Positions 10,632 to 19,218 of a DNA stretch of 64,000 nt are shown one piece after another. The stretch comes from Candidatus Poribacteria bacterium (GTDB taxonomy: Bacteria > Poribacteria > WGA-4E > WGA-3G). The notes beneath the pieces were generated by a model that saw only the letters and a list, made by a program, of their open reading frames with translations, ran no database searches and was not told the origin of the DNA. The stretch spans positions 416,001-480,000 of the forward strand of contig CBDANF010000002.1 in NCBI GenBank assembly GCA_965197475.1. Direction: 5' to 3'. A program made the translations under genes and the position numbers. Numbering within the stretch: the stretch's first letter is position 1; every line of letters begins with the position of its first letter.

Positions 10632-10715
10632 GATATTTCTCCAATCAAATTCGGGTTTCTCAATCTATTTATTATAACATAAAATGAATGAATTGTCAAA
10701 TTTTGGGCAGGTGGT

Positions 10716-10811: not shown

Positions 10812-11168
10812 TTAAAGTGGGATGTAAGTAATTTGGTCAATATATTCATCGTCGTCAGATGCACCAACAATGAGAAGCAACTGATCAATGATCAATCCCA
10901 TTGGCACTTCGAGATTAATCGTAAAAATGCCGGGAACATGGTGTCCTGCTGCCAGATGGTCAGAGAGATGTTGAGGCATACTTTTCCGATTGTTTGTTAT
11001 CAAGATAAATTGGTTCTGTTCACACCACTCTAAGATTTCTGGGTCTTGAGTGCCTCTTGTGGGAGCACCTTCATCGCCAACCCTCAAGACCGTTAGCGAT
11101 GATTCATGGTAAAGCAATTGCGTTCGGTAAGTTGGAGAAATATTTTCGTCTATCAGAAACCGACGCAT
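10812..11168 (-). CDS. DUF5615 family PIN-like toxin (VapC45-like)
   Basis: RFLIDENI...DPEILEWC....ILITNN...HVPGI. Confidence 0.85.
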   Translation of the reverse strand: MRRFLIDENISPTYRTQLLYHESSLTVLRVGDEGAPTRGTQDPEILEWCEQNQFILITNNRKSMPQHLSDHLAAGHHVPGIFTINLEVPMGLIIDQLLLIVGASDDDEYIDQITYIPL

Positions 11169-11170
11169 CT

Positions 11171-14100
11171 TTATTCCTGTTCATTTTTGGATGGAGATTG
11201 TGTTGTGCTTGCTGAGCCGTTTTTTGGACTGTTCGGGTGTGAATTATCAGAAACAGTTTCCCTTTCTGCTATAAGTTCACGCAAGCGAACAGCACCGGGC
11301 GGCGGATTTTTCTCGTATTCCTCTCGTGCCGTTTGGCAATATTTCAGATAATCCTCCAAATATGTACCAACTTCTTCTTGATTTTGAAAATAATATAGGA
11401 TCGTGGCGTAAATCTGTTCCAGTGTGGGTGTATAGTAATGATCCGCGATTACTACTGGTGTTTTGTTATTGTAAATATATTCGTATAGGATGGTTTCAAT
11501 ACCTACACGTGTTCCTTTAATACGAATATCATCTTCTGCCAAAAACGCAAAGTTATCTTCAAGAGGATAAATTTGTTTGAATTCATTGATTCGTCTAAGA
11601 ATACTGTTTTCGACGGGCAAAAAAAGTGTATGCTTGTTTTGAATTAGATTTTCAAGTTGGCTCAATACTGTGTGGGCATTCCGTCCATAAGTAAGTCCGG
11701 TTAATAAACCCAACGTCAAGAATTCTTTTTGTCTGAAAGAAATTGATTCCTCCCAAAGTATAAAGAGAAAATCAACTGCCACGTCTAAGGCATAATTTAA
11801 ATGCATTCGGTCTCTGCCTAAGGCAAGCACAAAACTATTGTAAGGTTCAGAGATTTTCCAATTTGCCCGTTTTGCTATTTCCAATAGTAGGTTTGCATCA
11901 AATTGAGTGTGATAGTAGCGAGAACAAACCAATTTTATCGTCATCTCATCGTAGTCAGCTTTATCAAGGAGGTTTTGCTTAACACAATGTTCCAATAAAA
12001 CTTGTGTCCACACACCGTCAATTTGAAAGTTTGTCCCGGCATCACTATTGAGAGTTGTCTTTGCATAATGTCTGAGCCGTCCATCATCCGAAAAAAGTAG
12101 GTGCCCCGGTTGGCTTGCGAGAAGAACAGTATCAAGGAAATGCTGTTGTAGCATGTCATTGAGTTCCCTCCTGCGTAATTGGTTCATCTCTGACCCAGCA
12201 GTGGCTTGACCAACTTCACAGTTATTCCTAATCCAGTGAATAATGTTTTTTAGATATTCTATTCCCTGCTTCGTTTCTTCAGGTTTGATGATTTGTTTTA
12301 TATACTGTTTTCCTTTTTTCCCAACTATCATTCCCTCGCGTTTAGACCACATTCCCTCTCTTTCACTGATAATACTCTGTAGTTCATCAATAGTCGATTG
12401 AGCAATGCATAGTTTTCCGAATGCGCTGACCACAATATCCGCAGCATCCAAACTGTGTAATGTTATGAGCGAAATAATATCTACAACCAGTTTAGGTTGA
12501 GAATGATTAAGTAGTTTATGGGCTTTGTTCCTTTCATCAAGATCCCCAAAACTACACCTAATCCCTAATTCAGGGTTACCCATGAGAGTACCCCACGTAT
12601 CTAAACTATTACTACCAACTAATTTTGAAAATACACCAATTGTTATGTTTTCTTCCTTATATCGTTTTTCATTTTGGAGTATGTATTCGTGATGCCGATC
12701 AACCCTGCTATATATTGGTTTAAATCTCTCTTTATCATCAATTACGTCAGAAGTGTCTAATTGAACCGTTTCCATACCTTCATCCGTTGGAAATAGATGC
12801 TCGTAATTGCGAAAACTTTCTTGTTTTGCATGAACAAATTTGCTTTTTATAGCAACGATTTTTTCAATTTTTGGACCATCCAGTGTTTCTTTAAAAATAA
12901 CCTCGTCATTTTCAACTTTATCAAGCATTTTCTGCACAATAGGTTCGTTTATACTGCGTTCACCGCGGGAGATGTCTGGGTCATCGCGATCTTCAATGAT
13001 GTACCAGTTATCCTGATCCATGTTATTGATTTGGACTGCGGTATCCTGGGCAACTTTAGATGGATTTAAGACATGAGGAATTAACTTTTCTACTTGATAG
13101 AATAATTCTATGTATATCAGGTGAGCAGCGGGATTATCCAAATGTGTTCTCCTCATCTCATACATGACCTGTAACGCTTTTTCAAGTTTGGATCTGACTC
13201 TATATAATTGAGCTAAATGATAGCAAGCCTCTAAAGAAAGATCCTTAAGGAAAGAGTGATTATTGAATTCTGGAAAACTTTCTAACACATTGTCAATTTC
13301 TTCCTCTTTATTAGAGCGAAAAAAAAACGTTCCGAGACGTATGTGCATATCATAATCAGTAGGAAATTTTGTTAAATATTCTTTACACACCATCTCTGTT
13401 TGGTTCATATCGCCGTATTCTTCATGAATCATCACTTCCATCACGGAAATGTTTTCAAGGGGTCCATATTTCTCTCGAAGTTTCTGACAAATCTTAAGTG
13501 CCTTCTCAATTTTCCCCGAATTATAGTAACTTTGCACTAACCATTGTGTCAATTGGGAATTCTGACTTGTGTCGGCAAGTCTTTCATATAGTGTTGCAGC
13601 TTCTTTAAATTGTTCATGGATATAGAGTTGGTCAGCCAATATTACAATATCAAGAAATTCTGCGCCATCCTGAACATAGTTGTATGCTTCTTTGAGTAGA
13701 GAAATTGCTTCATCGCGTTTTTCATTCGCGCTAAAAATGCGAGCAGCGTCAACAAGATTCGGTATGCTCTTTGGGGTTGAATCGCGCATAGCTATGGAAA
13801 TTTCTAATGCATCATCAAAACGTTTATCATCAAGATAAACATTAATGAGTAAACGTCTTGCTTTTTCTTGAAGTTCGGGAGACAAATCTGTCTGTAAAAA
13901 ATCATTAAGTATTGTAGTAGACTCATCTAATCGTTCATTCACTAAGAGAAAATTAGCAAGTATAATGGGTGCTTCAGGTACTTCGGGTGCGGATTGGATT
14001 GTTTCCAATAATTCAATCGCTTCTGCTATTTCTCCACACTCAAAAGCTAATAACGCACGATTTTTGATCAAAATTTGATTTGATTTTTCAATATCTAAGG

Positions 14101-15577
14101 CAGTATCAAGGTCTTCTGTTGCTTTTTTCAGTTCGCCAAGGTGAAAATGTGCTATGCCTCTGTTAATGATCCAATCTGCTCTATAATCTTTTAATTCCGT
14201 ATTGGCAATGCAATTCCATGCTTCAGTAAGTAATCCTATTGCACGTTGTAATTGTTCCTTTTGTGAATCATTAAGTTGACTGGTCCCCACTGCAAGATTA
14301 TCTTCTAATACTTGCTTAATCAAGATAGTTGCGAAAGCAGCTTTGAAATCAGGAGCGTTTCCCTGGTCCTGTGACAACATGATTTCACTCCATCTTTTCG
14401 CTGCTTCAAAATTCTCACGTTGCTTCGCTGATTCGCTTATAGCGTAAGCAATTTGTGGAGAATCGTGCAAATAGTCAGGAACTTTAGCGATTACTTCATC
14501 AAGTGGTTCTTCCTCAGCAGAAATTCCAATGAGAATTACATAAGCATCCGTATTAGCAGAATTCTTTTCCAGTGTCTGTTTTACGTATTCTGCAGCATAT
14601 TCCGTTTCTCCCAATAAGAGGTGAGCCAAAGCACGGTTAGAAAGTGCCCTTTCGTCTTCACGATTGTATTGAAATGACTCAAGTAACAACTTTGCAGCTT
14701 CTTTTTCGTTATTCAGTGATAATTGAGTAGCTGCCATATTTGTTAGAATGCTATACTTTAGATCATCCGAAGCATCTTTCCAAGTTCGTTTTTTCAGAGT
14801 TTCTAATAACTCAAGAGAAGTTGTAGGTTTATGTCTCTTGAGTAAGTTTCGAGCATTGTCTATTTCTGCATGATGTTCTTTTGCGATTGCTGTTTTTATT
14901 ATATCATTGTTGGGTGTGTTATTGTGGCGGACTTCATCTAAAATCGCACCCGTCGTTTGCTTAAGCTCCTTATTATCTTGCTTAATTTTTTCGATGTTAT
15001 CTTTGATGGCTTGGATATCTTGGGTTAAACGTTCACTCACTTCTAACCTTATTTGTTCAATTTCTGTCGTAACCTCCTTTAGCATAGAATGTGTGATCTT
15101 TTGATCAGTAGTATTTTTTTGTAGAAATTCAAGTACTACTTGATTGAATGCATCCTGTTCGAATGGAAGTTGTGTCAAAAATTCAATAATCACCATTTCA
15201 ATAACGGGACGAATTCTTCGTTCAATATCCATATTGGGCAATTGATGGTCGGGGACGATAATACATTTACGAAAAAGCGTTGTGATTCTTGTGATTTTTT
15301 CACTTTCATTTAATTGTGTGAATTGGACTTCATCAACATCTTTTAGTGAAGCAATAACGTTGTCAAATGTATGGTGACACACTTTAACCGTTTTTGGATC
15401 AGTAAGATCGGCAAAGTCAGACGCGTATTGCTTAACTACCTTATCAAAAGACTCTTTGAAAAGATCCTCTGCTGTAGTTTTGCAAAAATGTTTGATGCCG
15501 TGGTTGATACCACCAATAATAGAAAATCCAGTTCCTACAATATTATAAGCCTTGAGTACTAAACCGAGTATTGTCAT
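11171..15577 (-). CDS. TPR-GreA/B-C-PIN defence-type protein with C-terminal DUF433 antitoxin domain
   Basis: Long TPR array; GreA/B C-like segment (WYIIED..SINEPIVQKML..VENDEV..IVAIK); PIN (LVVDIIS..QSTIDEL..LFSDDGRLR); tail DDIRIKGTRVGIETILYEY..TLEQIYATILYY. Confidence 0.75.
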   Translation of the reverse strand: MTILGLVLKAYNIVGTGFSIIGGINHGIKHFCKTTAEDLFKESFDKVVKQYASDFADLTDPKTVKVCHHTFDNVIASLKDVDEVQFTQLNESEKITRITTLFRKCIIVPDHQLPNMDIERRIRPVIEMVIIEFLTQLPFEQDAFNQVVLEFLQKNTTDQKITHSMLKEVTTEIEQIRLEVSERLTQDIQAIKDNIEKIKQDNKELKQTTGAILDEVRHNNTPNNDIIKTAIAKEHHAEIDNARNLLKRHKPTTSLELLETLKKRTWKDASDDLKYSILTNMAATQLSLNNEKEAAKLLLESFQYNREDERALSNRALAHLLLGETEYAAEYVKQTLEKNSANTDAYVILIGISAEEEPLDEVIAKVPDYLHDSPQIAYAISESAKQRENFEAAKRWSEIMLSQDQGNAPDFKAAFATILIKQVLEDNLAVGTSQLNDSQKEQLQRAIGLLTEAWNCIANTELKDYRADWIINRGIAHFHLGELKKATEDLDTALDIEKSNQILIKNRALLAFECGEIAEAIELLETIQSAPEVPEAPIILANFLLVNERLDESTTILNDFLQTDLSPELQEKARRLLINVYLDDKRFDDALEISIAMRDSTPKSIPNLVDAARIFSANEKRDEAISLLKEAYNYVQDGAEFLDIVILADQLYIHEQFKEAATLYERLADTSQNSQLTQWLVQSYYNSGKIEKALKICQKLREKYGPLENISVMEVMIHEEYGDMNQTEMVCKEYLTKFPTDYDMHIRLGTFFFRSNKEEEIDNVLESFPEFNNHSFLKDLSLEACYHLAQLYRVRSKLEKALQVMYEMRRTHLDNPAAHLIYIELFYQVEKLIPHVLNPSKVAQDTAVQINNMDQDNWYIIEDRDDPDISRGERSINEPIVQKMLDKVENDEVIFKETLDGPKIEKIVAIKSKFVHAKQESFRNYEHLFPTDEGMETVQLDTSDVIDDKERFKPIYSRVDRHHEYILQNEKRYKEENITIGVFSKLVGSNSLDTWGTLMGNPELGIRCSFGDLDERNKAHKLLNHSQPKLVVDIISLITLHSLDAADIVVSAFGKLCIAQSTIDELQSIISEREGMWSKREGMIVGKKGKQYIKQIIKPEETKQGIEYLKNIIHWIRNNCEVGQATAGSEMNQLRRRELNDMLQQHFLDTVLLASQPGHLLFSDDGRLRHYAKTTLNSDAGTNFQIDGVWTQVLLEHCVKQNLLDKADYDEMTIKLVCSRYYHTQFDANLLLEIAKRANWKISEPYNSFVLALGRDRMHLNYALDVAVDFLFILWEESISFRQKEFLTLGLLTGLTYGRNAHTVLSQLENLIQNKHTLFLPVENSILRRINEFKQIYPLEDNFAFLAEDDIRIKGTRVGIETILYEYIYNNKTPVVIADHYYTPTLEQIYATILYYFQNQEEVGTYLEDYLKYCQTAREEYEKNPPPGAVRLRELIAERETVSDNSHPNSPKNGSASTTQSPSKNEQE

Positions 15578-15618: not shown

Positions 15619-16525
15619 TAGTAGACCCCAAAAATAAGTTTACATTTTCTGAGATTTATGTTAGCGTTTATGATTATGGCATATTCAACAGATGGACGCA
15701 AAAGCGTCCTTGATTTCATCAATAACGGTGGGAGTAAAACCGCTGCTAAACGCACCTTCGGTGTCTCAAGAAGGACGATCTATAACTGGTTAGAAGCAGA
15801 AAACCCCTTTGCCTATGAGAAGCCGGATACCAAAGGGCCCCGACACATTGATTATGATGCGCTTCAACAACATGTTGCCGATTTTCCCGATAGCACACTC
15901 GCCGAACGTGCCAAACACTTCGGTGTTTCAACAAACGGCATCTTTTATGCCTTGGCAAAACTCAATATCACGCGAAAAAAAAGACCACGACCTACAAAGA
16001 ACAGTGTCCGGTAAAACGCCAAGAGTATCTCTCGGCACTTCAACAAGAGACACACGAGCATGGCAAAAAACCGGTTTATCTTGACGAAAGTGGTTTCACC
16101 GAAACCGATTTCCGTCGGTATGCTTATGCCCGAAAGGTGTCCGTGTTGAAGATAAAGTGCCAAGTCATCGGTATACCACCACAACCTTGATTGCGGCACG
16201 TCTTGATGGATGTTTCACAGTGCCTGTGCTTTTCGAAGGTAGTTGCGATGCGGTTGCCTTCAACGCATGGCTTTCGGAGATGTTATGTCCTTTGCTTGAC
16301 AACAGCCACGTTGTGATTATGGATAATGCCTCTTTCCACAAAGGTTCACAAACAGAAGCATTGATCCGGGAATGCGGTGCAAGTTTGTTGTTTTTACCGC
16401 CGTATTCACCGGAGTTGAATCCGATTGAGAAAGATTTCGCTAACATCAAGCGAATACGTCAATACAACGCTGAGACCTCTATTGATGATATTATAAAAGT
16501 GTATAAGTAATTACAGGTTTTACTA
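15619..16525 (+). mobile_element. IS630-family insertion sequence
   Basis: Imperfect IRs TAGTAGACCCCAAAAATA / TAGTAAAACCTGTAATTA flanked by TA on both sides. Confidence 0.85.
15676..16510 (+). CDS. IS630 transposase (orfA/orfB joined by -1 frameshift at A8G; extra indel near 16130)
   Basis: HTH orfA; YLDESG, VIMDNASFH, LPPYSPELNPIE motifs; AAAAAAAAG slippery site near 15975. Confidence 0.88.
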
Positions 16526-17386
16526 TAAAATGCCGGTAATAGTAAGTCTTGACGGTGCTTCTTCCTGAAATTGTTCAAGAATTTCAATTACTTCTTGCAT
16601 TTGAGAGTTGGATAGGTATGCCGTTCCACCTCTGCTTGGATTTGGCGATATCCAATTAAATTTGGTGTCTATTACGGATTCATTTAGTGCTTGGAGAAAA
16701 TTGGTGTAGTCCTTAGCTACTCTTAATCTTAGTTGTCCAAAGAGTTTCTTAAGTTTTTCTTGGTTGCTTTCGGCATTGAGGAGTTCAAAGAACTTTTCTA
16801 CTGCATCTCCACAATCAGAATTATCAAAAAGGTTAAGTTGAGTAATTTCTGGAGAGACGAGATGAATATTGAACGATCCAGGACTGACTTGCAAAAGCGA
16901 GATTTGCATGCTATTCCTAATTTCATCAGTGACCTGAGATGAGTTAAAGCAGACCATTCCTATTGTGTTAATTACAGCTTGGAGTTTTCCAAAAACATTG
17001 CTTAGGAAAGCTATAGGTGCTTGTGTTTTAGGACCTTCAGCAAAGTTGAAATTTAGATTCAGGCTTTCTTGTTTTCTGGATTTTGCTATTTCTACCGCAT
17101 CCCTTAGTATTGGGGGCATTTCGTTTTCAAGATCGATGCATTCACTGGGCAGTGGCAGCACATCCTCAGATCTACTCAAAGACTCTTCCACCTGTATCGG
17201 TTCACCAGTATGTTGAGTCAGGTACTCAAGAACTTCCTTTTGCATTTTTTCTATTTCCACCCGATACCCACTTGAAACGTATAAAAATTCTTCAGGGGTG
17301 GCTTTAACACACAGTTGCATGAGCAGATCTTGAAAATACGCTACACGTTGTTGACTCGTTTTGAGTTCTGTATTATTTTGAATCAT
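16523..17386 (-). CDS. Chimeric protein: N-terminal small TA partner of DUF6932 fused to an unknown ~210 aa domain; 3' end cut by IS630
   Basis: MIQNNTELKTSQQRVAYFQ..GYRVEIEKMQKEVLEYL start overlaps the DUF6932 stop; removing the IS adds only THTERTPERR before a stop. Confidence 0.55.
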   Translation of the reverse strand: MIQNNTELKTSQQRVAYFQDLLMQLCVKATPEEFLYVSSGYRVEIEKMQKEVLEYLTQHTGEPIQVEESLSRSEDVLPLPSECIDLENEMPPILRDAVEIAKSRKQESLNLNFNFAEGPKTQAPIAFLSNVFGKLQAVINTIGMVCFNSSQVTDEIRNSMQISLLQVSPGSFNIHLVSPEITQLNLFDNSDCGDAVEKFFELLNAESNQEKLKKLFGQLRLRVAKDYTNFLQALNESVIDTKFNWISPNPSRGGTAYLSNSQMQEVIEILEQFQEEAPSRLTITGIL

Positions 17387-17641: not shown

Positions 17642-18997
17642 CTGATATTTCTCAGAATGGTCTTGAACCTAATAATAATCAATAGAAACAAGGTATAGCA
17701 CCATGAAAATGCGTTTTTGCTGTGTCCATTTTCCTTGACTTTTATAGCATGAGATAGCATCCTAATTACAGATTTGAATATAAACAAACATTAGGAGGAT
17801 ATCTCATGCTAACTCAGCTTATCAAATCTACCACTTTTTTTCAAGAACTTCTATCTTCACAGTTTCGGACCTTGAAACAGCATTTTGTTCATACCTTAGT
17901 GTTTTTGTCAACCTGCCATCTGTTTGGGCTCACTAACCCGGATCAAGTGGCGGATGCGTTGTCTATTCCGAAAACGAGGCTATATCGGGAACTGAACACG
18001 ATGAGTCTTTATCTCTGGCAGCATCTTTTTGTGCGTATCGGGTGTTCTATTGCGTTAGAGGTGCTACAGGAGGCAGTATCAAAAAGTGCTGCTTCTCTAT
18101 CGCGTCTGTGTATCGTCATCAGTGTGGATGATACCTTTGTTTTCCGCTATGGAGAGGGTCTCGCCTACACATCCAATTGGTGGTCTTCTCAAGCAAAACA
18201 GCCGATGAAGGGGCAAAATATATTGGGGATCGTCCTAAAGATTGGAAAACGGATCATTCCCCTGAATATGCGACTGATCAGCAAACAAGGCCGCGGGAAC
18301 ACGGATAAACCCTCCTGTGTCATCACTATGTTCAAGGAAATCTTGTCTTTCTTTGAAGGGACCGGAATAGATATCCGAAACTATCCGGTCACCTTTGATT
18401 CGTGGTATGGCAGCCACCACTTGATTGACACCTTGCGAGAAATGGGATTTGAAACGATCCTTGTGCACGGAAAAAGCAACTATGTGATGACGATTGATGA
18501 AAAAAGGGCGAAACTCTCGGAACATAAAAAGTCGATCCAACTCCTCTCCAATCAATGGGGGTGCGATAAACCGGTCTATCGGACTAAAGCCACAAGTCCA
18601 ACTTTTGGAAAAGTAGTGGTGTTGTTCTTTGCAGACCGTGGCAAAGTCCGAACAATGCTGGTATTCGGGAAACCGCTGCGTGCGTGTGAAATCCTACGGA
18701 TATGGTCTCAACACCACGGTATAGAACAGTATTGGCGGTATCTAAAAACAGACCTAAACCTTGCATCCATGAGCCTAAAAGGACGGAATGGCGCGTATGC
18801 GAACTTAGGTGTGAAAGTGATGAGCTACCTTTTGATACAGCAGGTCAGTCGCTCCGTGCGAAAAACCTTTCATCAAGGACAACTTGAACTTTCAGGACAG
18901 AGGCAGATGCTGTCTGATCTCAGCGAGCATTTTCATGAACAAATACCAAGAAAACACTGATAAACATTGACATATGAAGAATTTTGATAAATATCAG
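17642..18997 (+). mobile_element. IS701-like (IS4 superfamily) element, copy 1, 1356 bp
   Basis: IRs CTGATATTTCTCAGAAT / CTGATATTTATCAAAAT; 5-bp target duplication CCAAA. Confidence 0.9.
17806..18960 (+). CDS. DDE transposase (IS701/IS4-like)
   Basis: ISVDDT, TFDSWY, HHGIEQYWRYLK motifs. Confidence 0.88.
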   Translation: MLTQLIKSTTFFQELLSSQFRTLKQHFVHTLVFLSTCHLFGLTNPDQVADALSIPKTRLYRELNTMSLYLWQHLFVRIGCSIALEVLQEAVSKSAASLSRLCIVISVDDTFVFRYGEGLAYTSNWWSSQAKQPMKGQNILGIVLKIGKRIIPLNMRLISKQGRGNTDKPSCVITMFKEILSFFEGTGIDIRNYPVTFDSWYGSHHLIDTLREMGFETILVHGKSNYVMTIDEKRAKLSEHKKSIQLLSNQWGCDKPVYRTKATSPTFGKVVVLFFADRGKVRTMLVFGKPLRACEILRIWSQHHGIEQYWRYLKTDLNLASMSLKGRNGAYANLGVKVMSYLLIQQVSRSVRKTFHQGQLELSGQRQMLSDLSEHFHEQIPRKH

Positions 18998-19218
18998 CCA
19001 AAAATAAGCAATCGTTGAAAGTGGTTTATATCTTTGGCAAGTTGATAAATACGGAGCAACCGCTCGGTTACAATTTTCCGTTGCGCGGTGCCGCTACCAA
19101 ATTGACTGACTACTTCATCAATCGTTGCTTTGTATATTCCTTCAGGCAAATCACCCGCATCATTTAGATCGGGAAGCGTCATTCAATTTAACCTCTATTG
19201 TGGACGCGCACAATCAAG

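Follow-up and report, generated by a model that had tools for sequence, protein, structure and literature searches.

The question raised by the stretch of DNA analysed here, a window of 64,000 nucleotides from contig C2 of the 5.7-Mb three-contig genome of a Candidatus Poribacteria bacterium (genome G000), is how a large predicted immune protein came to end in an antitoxin-like domain and what that domain does for it. Candidatus Poribacteria are sponge symbionts. On its minus strand the window encodes a protein of 1468 amino acids (aa) plus stop (11171..15577) of the TPR-GreA/B-C-PIN (TGP) type, whose C-terminal tail resembles DUF433 antitoxins, and directly behind it the tail's partner, a 118-aa PIN-like protein of the DUF5615 family (10812..11168). 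To our knowledge, TGPs are a widespread predicted immune family of which one member has been studied at the bench. We find that the TGP-DUF433 fusion is a new combination of two known kinds of element, that it is real and conserved, and that its origin is well explained. As to its function, we lean, if only slightly, towards a reading in which the TGP defence protein absorbed the DUF433 antitoxin encoded downstream and now tethers the DUF5615 protein, which would be freed on a trigger.

The open reading frame (ORF) of the fusion gene runs across the junction (...CAA ATT TAT CCT CTT GAA GAT AAC...) with neither an in-frame stop nor an ATG, and methionine is wholly absent from the tail of the protein. 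It terminates in a TAA (11173-11171), which is separated by the dinucleotide AG from the ATG (11168-11166) of the DUF5615 gene; an AGGA at 11178-11175, 6 nucleotides ahead of that ATG, lies within the last codons of the fusion gene. The antitoxin-like region thus stands immediately 5' of the DUF5615 gene at a spacing of 2 bp, which is the gene order of type II toxin-antitoxin systems, and the DUF5615 gene is most likely co-transcribed and translationally coupled with the fusion gene. The uninterrupted frame and the 2-bp gap had already been claimed in a first reading of the window made from its letters alone (hereafter the sequence-only reading), and both hold on direct inspection; a stop or start at the junction, which that reading had named as grounds for abandoning the fusion, was looked for and did not occur. 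Contigs from three metatranscriptome libraries (two studies) span the TGP stop and the DUF5615 start and one spans the junction, where the aligned public contigs contain no inserted or deleted letters.

Ahead of the tail, the protein follows the TGP plan, all its parts being encoded on the minus strand. The TPR repeat region (~aa 251-830; 13088..14827) is matched between aa ~270 and 830 by several Pfam families, including TPR_19, TPR_1, TPR_2, TPR_14 and ANAPC3. It is followed by a GreA/B C-terminal-like stretch (aa 838-896; 12890..13066) detected by a weak match to NCBIfam NF001264 (E 0.002, profile positions 82-142 of 158, far below the cut-off); the Pfam family GreA_GreB was not matched in the large protein. 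The stretch lies between the TPRs and the PIN domain, as in the published description of the family (PMC8195603). The PIN domain itself (aa 1031-1173; 12059..12487) matches PF20698, the PIN-TPR-GreABC family, at E 1.6e-26 and 93.6 bits (cut-off 27.8), and its acidic residues D1033, D1149, D1164 and D1165 are nearly invariant in the alignment. A helical post-PIN region (aa 1174-1337; 11567..12058) forms the usual C-terminus of TGPs, as judged from where relatives end, among them the protein at locus L012. The tail then comprises a DUF433 core (aa 1338-1400; 11378..11566) with an invariant G1355-T-R1357 loop, delimited by profiles, conservation and the predicted interface; a C-terminal extension (aa 1401-1436; 11270..11377) of the form ...EEYEKNPPPG.VRLR.L...; and a low-complexity end (aa 1437-1468; 11174..11269), with the ribosome-binding site of the DUF5615 gene overlapping its final codons. 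Hence, the architecture put forward in the sequence-only reading, TPR, GreA-C-like and PIN followed by DUF433 with DUF5615 adjoining, is borne out by Pfam and NCBIfam matches, weakly so in its GreA part.

DUF433 is common in cyanobacteria, Chloroflexi and mycobacteria. The match of the tail to DUF433 (PF04255) hovers around the threshold: hmmscan gives 20.1 bits for aa 1352-1396 (cut-off 23.6; profile positions 13-56 of 56) and a whole-genome scan 24.9 bits, above the cut-off. Small proteins matching the tail alone score higher, namely P0385 (57% identity; 38.9 bits) and P0333 (65% identity; 26.2 bits). Searched against the PDB as a single sequence, the tail yields only a chance-level match; a profile built from the tail, its stand-alone relatives and the canonical DUF433 genes of the same genome recovers the solved DUF433 protein 2GA1 at E 1.6e-6. 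The loop G-[TM]-R, present in the tail as the conserved G1355, T1356 and R1357, has its glycine and arginine invariant across both tail-type and canonical DUF433 sequences. By these four lines of evidence the tail belongs to DUF433. The sequence-only reading had called it a complete DUF433-like domain: the identity stands, and 'complete' was slightly generous, since relative to canonical DUF433 the tail is short of about 6 N-terminal residues. It also bears the conserved C-terminal extension of ~40 aa, which is common to the stand-alone tail-type proteins and not found in canonical DUF433.

The fusion is widely distributed. A search with residues 1000-1468 recovered 305 protein clusters; among the 120 of these that were listed, identity is 79-100% over 99-100% of the queried region, 111 are 1455-1480 aa long and the remaining 9 are shorter. 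In a set holding one genome per species for 176 Poribacteria species (the phylum set), we found the fusion at 34 loci in 30 genomes, as 33 full-length single-frame rows in 29 genomes and one copy split over two contigs. These fall into two sub-clades, at ~65-78% and 53-58% identity. Three single-frame rows were flagged for an internal TAG; in two of them the protein is only 2 residues shorter, the third being that of G156 (see below), and none of the 33 has a premature stop ahead of the tail. The frequency of the majority residue is 0.91 in the tail core, 0.87 in the extension, 0.91 in the PIN domain and 0.76 in the low-complexity end. The median ratio of nonsynonymous to synonymous substitution rates (dN/dS; 36 pairs, 9 genes) amounts to 0.24 in the tail, 0.17 in PIN and 0.30 in DUF5615, with 0.41 in the low-complexity end. 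Constraint on the tail matches that on the PIN domain, and the intact fused frame recurs far more than expected by chance. A one-off fusion, the other outcome on which the sequence-only reading said it would fall, is therefore not what the genomes contain.

Where the tail came from can be read from relatives that lack it. In a representative library at 50% identity, 1937 proteins matched the large protein; among the 150 of these that were listed, the match of 144 ends at or before residue 1339, mostly close to the relative's own C-terminus, and the 6 whose match extends past residue ~1340 are all of the Poribacteria type. A Poribacteria TGP with 53% identity (L012) ends exactly at the junction, without tail or DUF5615. 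A further nine tail-less Poribacteria TGP loci, all with 2.5 kb or more of sequence downstream, likewise have neither DUF433 nor DUF5615, be it of this type or of three paralogous types, so that DUF5615 occurs at 0 of 10 tail-less loci. The intermediate state is preserved in three genomes with the unfused order TGP, DUF433 gene, DUF5615. At the first of these (G142, locus L047), the TGP stop is followed by a gap of 57 nucleotides and a 129-codon DUF433 gene, the product of which can be aligned to the tail starting at its first residues, and then by DUF5615; G140 has the same arrangement, and in G100 the tail is in another frame than the TGP. The existence of these three-gene loci implies that a local toxin-antitoxin-like module was captured through loss of a stop, and loci of the G142 type imply that the fused junction joins the old TGP C-terminus to the old antitoxin N-terminus.

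The free form of the module is abundant: stand-alone tail-type proteins form 2336 clusters, the named ones being annotated as Poribacteria DUF433 proteins, and tail-type sequence is present in 127 of the 176 genomes of the phylum set (E<=1e-8). The genome of the window itself has four canonical pairs with DUF433 preceding DUF5615 (contigs C2 and C3; L013, L014, L015, L017). Together with the unfused loci, these same-order pairs uphold the derivation of the tail from a DUF433-DUF5615 pair that had been proposed for it. The fusion thus arose by the joining of a TGP with the DUF433 gene downstream. In the four canonical pairs, DUF5615 has the T/S-x-D motif in its usual form; several further DUF433 genes of this genome stand without DUF5615 next to them. 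A single phylum thus preserves all stages: the bare sensor, the sensor with a free pair, the fused form, trimmed forms and possibly a triple fusion.

What the captured domain might do is suggested by the partner that accompanies it. The DUF5615 protein, which has 325 relatives, matches PF18480 at 36.3 bits (cut-off 23.8) and is modelled by AlphaFold2 (AF2) with a pLDDT of 91.7. Co-folding of tail residues 1330-1445 (60-row alignment) with DUF5615 (56-row alignment), the check that the sequence-only reading had suggested, gave an ipSAE of 0.70 (runs 0.70, 0.71 and 0.68), against 0.01 for the best of three controls. Of 157 solved complexes 116 pass the same mark, as do 2 of 215 mismatched pairs, a calibration that is only roughly valid with custom alignments. 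The runs share at least 95% of their contacts, with a partner pLDDT of at least 88. On the tail side, the predicted interface involves residues 1346-1365 including the G-T-R-V-G loop (1355-1359), 1380-1383 and 1410-1436 of the extension; on the DUF5615 side it involves residues 7-9, 29-31, 38-40, 59-60 and the C-terminal part, of which residues 96-118 are predicted to contact 1410-1436 of the tail. The contacts predicted with lowest error set R1357, invariant in the alignment, against DUF5615 residues 7, 8, 9, 30, 38-40 and 45, such that in the model this arginine sits within an acidic pocket of DUF5615. Within the PDB, the tail has a single relative, a DUF433 protein whose structure was determined without a partner, and PDB sequence searches found no solved complex of DUF433 with a PIN-like partner. 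DUF5615 has no PDB match by sequence or profile at E<=1; hence, the passing score is unlikely to come from a solved complex that the predictor had learned. The support for binding of the fused tail to DUF5615, and so for a tether between DUF5615 and the sensor, is in silico only. The model also provides a structural hypothesis for how DUF433 antitoxins could neutralise PIN-like partners.

Putting these observations together, we propose the following scenario. When a stop codon was lost along with a short spacer, a TGP absorbed the DUF433 antitoxin of a lineage-specific DUF433-DUF5615 module lying directly downstream, with DUF5615 staying a separate gene. The fused tail would bind DUF5615 by placing the invariant arginine of its G-T-R loop in the acidic pocket (D7, E8, N59, N60), with the 40-residue extension wrapping around the partner. 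If the tail does bind DUF5615, then each TGP molecule would carry one masked PIN-like partner. Once the TGP is triggered, degraded or no longer made, DUF5615 might be freed to arrest the cell, a step that presupposes both its toxicity and a trigger; candidate triggers are the shut-off of the host by a phage, an anti-defence factor from a phage and a mutation that truncates the protein. The sequence-only reading had suggested that cleavage or a conformational change of the sensor upon infection could bring about the release. The result would be a second, abortive layer of defence and a large gene that is hard to lose. A more specific version, which we offer as a tentative and somewhat doubtful idea, is a dead-man's switch: the last ~100 residues of the TGP would be the only antidote to DUF5615, so that host shut-off by a phage, a phage factor degrading or blocking the TGP, or its truncation by mutation would each unmask DUF5615 and kill or arrest the cell. 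If true, this would explain why only in-frame derivatives that keep the tail persist (the ~477- and ~533-aa forms described below) and why DUF5615 decays alongside broken tail-bearing genes. It would have the corollary that the G-T-R arginine of the DUF433 family plugs the acidic pocket of PIN-like toxins of the Mut7-C type.

Several observations weigh against this proposal, most of them concerning DUF5615. The Pfam match covers only profile positions 2-56 of 110, i.e., the N-terminal half. Foldseek found nothing for it among PDB structures at E<=0.001, and the VIA comparison, with a best Z of 8.7, returned only generic three-layer alpha/beta folds of the receiver or B12-binding type (Z 7-8.7), matches that neither confirm nor exclude a PIN-like fold. 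The T/S-x-D-x-D motif of the four paralogues reads T-N-N-R-K in this protein: each of 120 ortholog clusters has N59 and N60, N60 aligning with the motif aspartate; K62 replaces the second aspartate; and a sister protein with 48% identity keeps the asparagine. The full acidic set typical of PIN domains is thus absent, the four paralogues having the aspartate, and with N60 and K62 replacing the two motif aspartates DUF5615 may not be a nuclease. The missing aspartate is a real caveat, as the partner may no longer be a nuclease at all; of the sequence-only reading's 'second PIN toxin', the family assignment survives and the plain wording as a PIN toxin is called into question. As for the system as a whole, one genome (G073, L079) keeps the fused TGP-tail with DUF5615 absent and a 356-aa ORF ~160 bp further on, and another (G156, L082) has a stop inside the tail extension with DUF5615 intact. 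PADLOC has no model and PHROGs no family for either protein. The contigs from RNA libraries cover the region and show its presence, which cannot prove a transcript. Finally, an IS630-family element 80 bp upstream of the fusion gene renders expression at this locus uncertain.

DUF5615 is strictly linked to the tail. All 10 tail-bearing public loci have it behind the tail (the locus end cuts one of them), and so do 32 of the 33 assessable TGP-tail loci of the phylum set, the exception being G073; one further locus lies at a contig end. When coordinates are compared, each of the 70 DUF5615 rows of 60% identity or more follows a tail row on its strand at a distance of 0-75 bp. Tails, by contrast, can do without DUF5615: among 20 stand-alone tail genes, 7 lack it, in about three independent contexts, and 3 have only a piece of it. 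Survival of the antidote alone, without survival of the poison alone, is the pattern expected of a toxin-antitoxin pair, and it is compatible, too, with a partner of no use by itself. Shorter derivatives of the fusion exist as well. A ~477-aa form (L049-L057, e.g. L050:1417-2850, minus strand), mostly from one sister genus, joins aa 1-211, aa 989-1014 and the last ~240 residues, without the TPRs, the GreA-like part and PIN; a full DUF5615 stands behind it in 9 of 9 loci. A ~533-aa form, consisting of PIN, post-PIN region and tail, has DUF5615 behind it in 2 of 3 cases and a broken one in the third (L058). At L077 and L078, where an insertion interrupts the tail-bearing ORF, DUF5615 too is truncated. 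One genome has the ~477-aa protein with its tail and DUF5615 in a single frame of 597 codons (L061:1489-3282, plus strand), the stop being lost to one extra base in a G run; the triple fusion is either genuine or the product of a homopolymer error.

Such a pattern could be produced by a pure addiction or integrity lock, a selfish stabiliser without infection sensing from which only in-frame deletions survive, an account we regard as fairly unlikely. With the antitoxin at the extreme C-terminus of a 4.4-kb gene, any nonsense mutation, frameshift or insertion would remove it while DUF5615 is still made, and would therefore be penalised. In line with this, the in-frame derivatives keep both tail and DUF5615 (apart from the broken copy at L058), both insertion-broken copies have a truncated DUF5615, all 70 close DUF5615 genes lie behind a tail, and the 33 TGP-tail rows are free of a premature stop before it. 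However, 12 tail-less TGP rows are equally intact, such that no difference in decay is seen, and G073 lost DUF5615 while retaining the fusion. Moreover, such a lock overlaps with the proposed masking of DUF5615 by the sensor and does not exclude it.

The asparagines raise a different possibility, namely that the Asn60 clade of DUF5615 has been domesticated into a non-toxic partner without nuclease activity, a bound subunit (e.g. RNA-binding or regulatory) recruited by the tail. The invariant N59/N60 and K62 at the acidic positions of the paralogues favour it, as does strong purifying selection over the whole of DUF5615 (dN/dS 0.30); a site of a different type could be made up of the nearly invariant H67, D70, H71 and H77, and how many residues the active site contains varies in the Mut7-C group, which has a reduced PIN fold (PMC5499597). 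We nevertheless consider it unlikely. The same Asn-type DUF5615 is also the partner of small DUF433 proteins in many ordinary two-gene pairs, which argues for a retained activity that needs an antidote. Tail-only orphans occur whereas DUF5615-only ones do not, as would be expected for a toxin. Finally, DUF5615 keeps D7, E8 and D42, of which D7 is invariant, and the predicted antitoxin arginine sits on these residues.

Less probable still, and in our estimate very unlikely, is that the tail mainly acts as a DNA-binding autoregulator, a winged-helix DUF433 tethering the TGP to its own promoter or to DNA, with DUF5615 binding being secondary. A precedent is VapB10, which binds its promoter (PMC3834315). 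However, the stand-alone relative P0385 has an extra N-terminal segment that by eye looks like a ribbon-helix-helix domain (there is no Pfam match there), which would suggest that the DUF433 part itself does not bind DNA, and the best-conserved residues of the tail are those of the predicted protein interface. A promoter scan was at chance level, with 17 promoter-like sites against 16.6 expected and none within the tail on the strand of the gene; it is evidence neither for nor against an internal promoter. That the fusion is an assembly or sequencing artefact, or a recent and functionless read-through, is scarcely credible: the one-base change at L061 illustrates how a homopolymer error could produce such a frame, but the same fused frame recurs at 34 loci in 30 genomes and in 305 clusters, its tail has a dN/dS of 0.24 and public contigs cross the junction without inserted or deleted letters.

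In 6 of 8 related loci examined, hsdM, the type I methylase gene, lies directly upstream on the same strand, and downstream in various of the 8 are hsdS, C5 methylases, an Mrr-type nuclease, an HsdR N-terminus and a weak NACHT match; the tail-less L012 is flanked by an AAA ATPase and an Eco57I-type enzyme. This neighbourhood is a defence-island pattern. At L004, L005 and L007-L010, the TGP-DUF5615 pair sits immediately behind hsdM, giving the impression of an insertion into a type I restriction-modification operon. The pair of the window adjoins rpe and two zinc dehydrogenases, neighbours that only L003 shares. A perfect 12/12 sigma-70 consensus with an extended -10 TG (10671-10699, minus strand) lies between the DUF5615 stop and the rpe start and is probably the rpe promoter. 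Upstream of the fusion gene, the IS630-family transposase is split in two ORFs (HTH_Tnp_IS630 and DDE_3; 15658-16510, plus strand), and an IS4-type DDE transposase lies farther upstream (17806-18960, plus strand); these insertion sequences may have separated the fusion gene from its native promoter. Between them is a 287-aa ORF (16523-17386, minus strand) with no Pfam family and a weak match to PHROG 6603 (function unassigned), of which no relative was found in other TGP loci. A 62-aa ORF beside the IS4 element (18994-19182, minus strand) matches only the first 58 positions of DUF6932 and is probably a gene fragment.

The N-terminal domain of the fusion protein (aa 1-250; 14828..15577, minus strand) opens with a conserved glycine-rich hydrophobic stretch of 30 residues and includes a long helix besides a helical core. 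Its family is unassigned: it has no Pfam match and no Foldseek match at E<=0.001, its AF2 model has a mean pLDDT of 67, and its atlas scores of 0.79 and 0.75 are at chance level (below 0.8). The domain is kept in the ~477-aa deletion derivatives. The first 30 residues (15488-15577, minus strand) are nearly invariant (M-T-I-L-x-L-V-F-x-A-Y-N-I-V-G-T-G-F-S-I-x-G-G-I-N) and modelled with low confidence, and their position recalls the amyloid motif of Agp, the TGP discussed below. An hmmsearch of the 34-residue N-terminal motif against 63083 six-frame ORFs of the genome found only the gene's own copy; with the motif in no second ORF of the genome, a Bab-like partner sharing it was excluded.

Comparison with known systems places the fusion at the meeting point of several of them. 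The TGP family has been described as having a constant TPR, GreA/B-C and PIN core with a variable N-terminus, mostly in standalone genes (Kaur et al. 2021, PMC8195603). The present protein agrees in the order of TPR, weakly matched GreA/B-C-like stretch and PF20698, in a non-homologous N-terminus and in its defence-island setting. Unlike TGP systems, which have few conserved neighbours, it carries DUF433 at its C-terminus and has DUF5615 as an obligate neighbour (in 32 of 33 assessable loci). In the source table of that work (fig2-data1, PMC8195603), only a TM+TM (transmembrane) arrangement follows PIN (4 rows), the Poribacteria entries are four proteins of 470-1315 aa, and a search that covered 12 of the 13 supplementary files found neither DUF433 nor COG2442 in the table; an earlier study does not treat the TGP family (Kaur 2020, PMC7159879). 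Agp, a TGP of E. coli ECOR25, defends against phage T5 by experiment, together with a small neighbouring membrane-targeting partner in the Bab/Agp pair, the two being coupled by a shared N-terminal amyloid motif (bioRxiv 10.1101/2024.11.07.622273). In Bab/Agp sensing falls to the TGP and cell killing to a small separate protein, a division proposed here for the fusion protein and DUF5615. In contrast to the N-terminal amyloid coupling of Bab/Agp, a C-terminal antitoxin domain would here couple a downstream PIN-like partner.

Pairs of DUF433/COG2442 with PIN were predicted to be toxin-antitoxin systems by Makarova et al. 2009 (PMC2701414), and one such COG2442(DUF433)-PIN pair, VapBC10 of Synechocystis, has been demonstrated to be a toxin-antitoxin system whose antitoxin is degraded by ClpXP (PMC3834315). 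Our locus shares with VapBC10 the order of antitoxin then toxin and the DUF433 antitoxin, which in the VapBC10 complex neutralises its toxin. However, the VapBC10 antitoxin is a small free DNA-binding protein, whereas here the corresponding domain is the last 130 residues of a 1468-aa protein, with the canonical N-terminus partly absent, a 40-aa extension, and a partner having asparagine at a PIN acidic position. In VapBC45 (Rv2018/Rv2019), a DUF433 antitoxin is fused to a winged helix-turn-helix domain and accompanied by a reduced PIN-like toxin (PMC5499597, PMC2701414), and a DUF433-PIN_10 pair has been reported inside an hsdM/hsdS island (PMC5499597). The window's system resembles this VapBC45/PIN_10/COG4634 Mut7-C group in the fusion of DUF433 to another domain and in the hsd setting, without DUF5615 being equated with PIN_10. 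The known fusion partners of DUF433 are small DNA-binding domains, whereas here it is fused to a defence sensor, a TGP-DUF433 combination of which searches of the literature on TGP, DUF433/DUF5615 and Poribacteria antitoxins yielded no description.

Two further systems offer parallels in function. PrrC is an anticodon nuclease that is held latent by the EcoprrI type I restriction enzyme, encoded at an hsd locus, and freed on phage attack. The likeness is functional only, in that a latent RNase is masked by a defence protein; the masking of PrrC is a non-covalent association with the restriction complex, without fusion of an antitoxin domain. CapRel is a fused toxin-antitoxin defence protein in which both parts form one chain and the antitoxin itself senses phage. 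As in CapRel, an antitoxin domain within a larger defence polypeptide would gate a toxin; unlike in CapRel, the toxin-like protein is separate and the sensor would be the TGP. Set beside the Agp type as the first, the fusion would represent a second and different way of coupling TGP sensors to killing modules, and it offers a clear, testable case of toxin-antitoxin modules being recruited into defence proteins.

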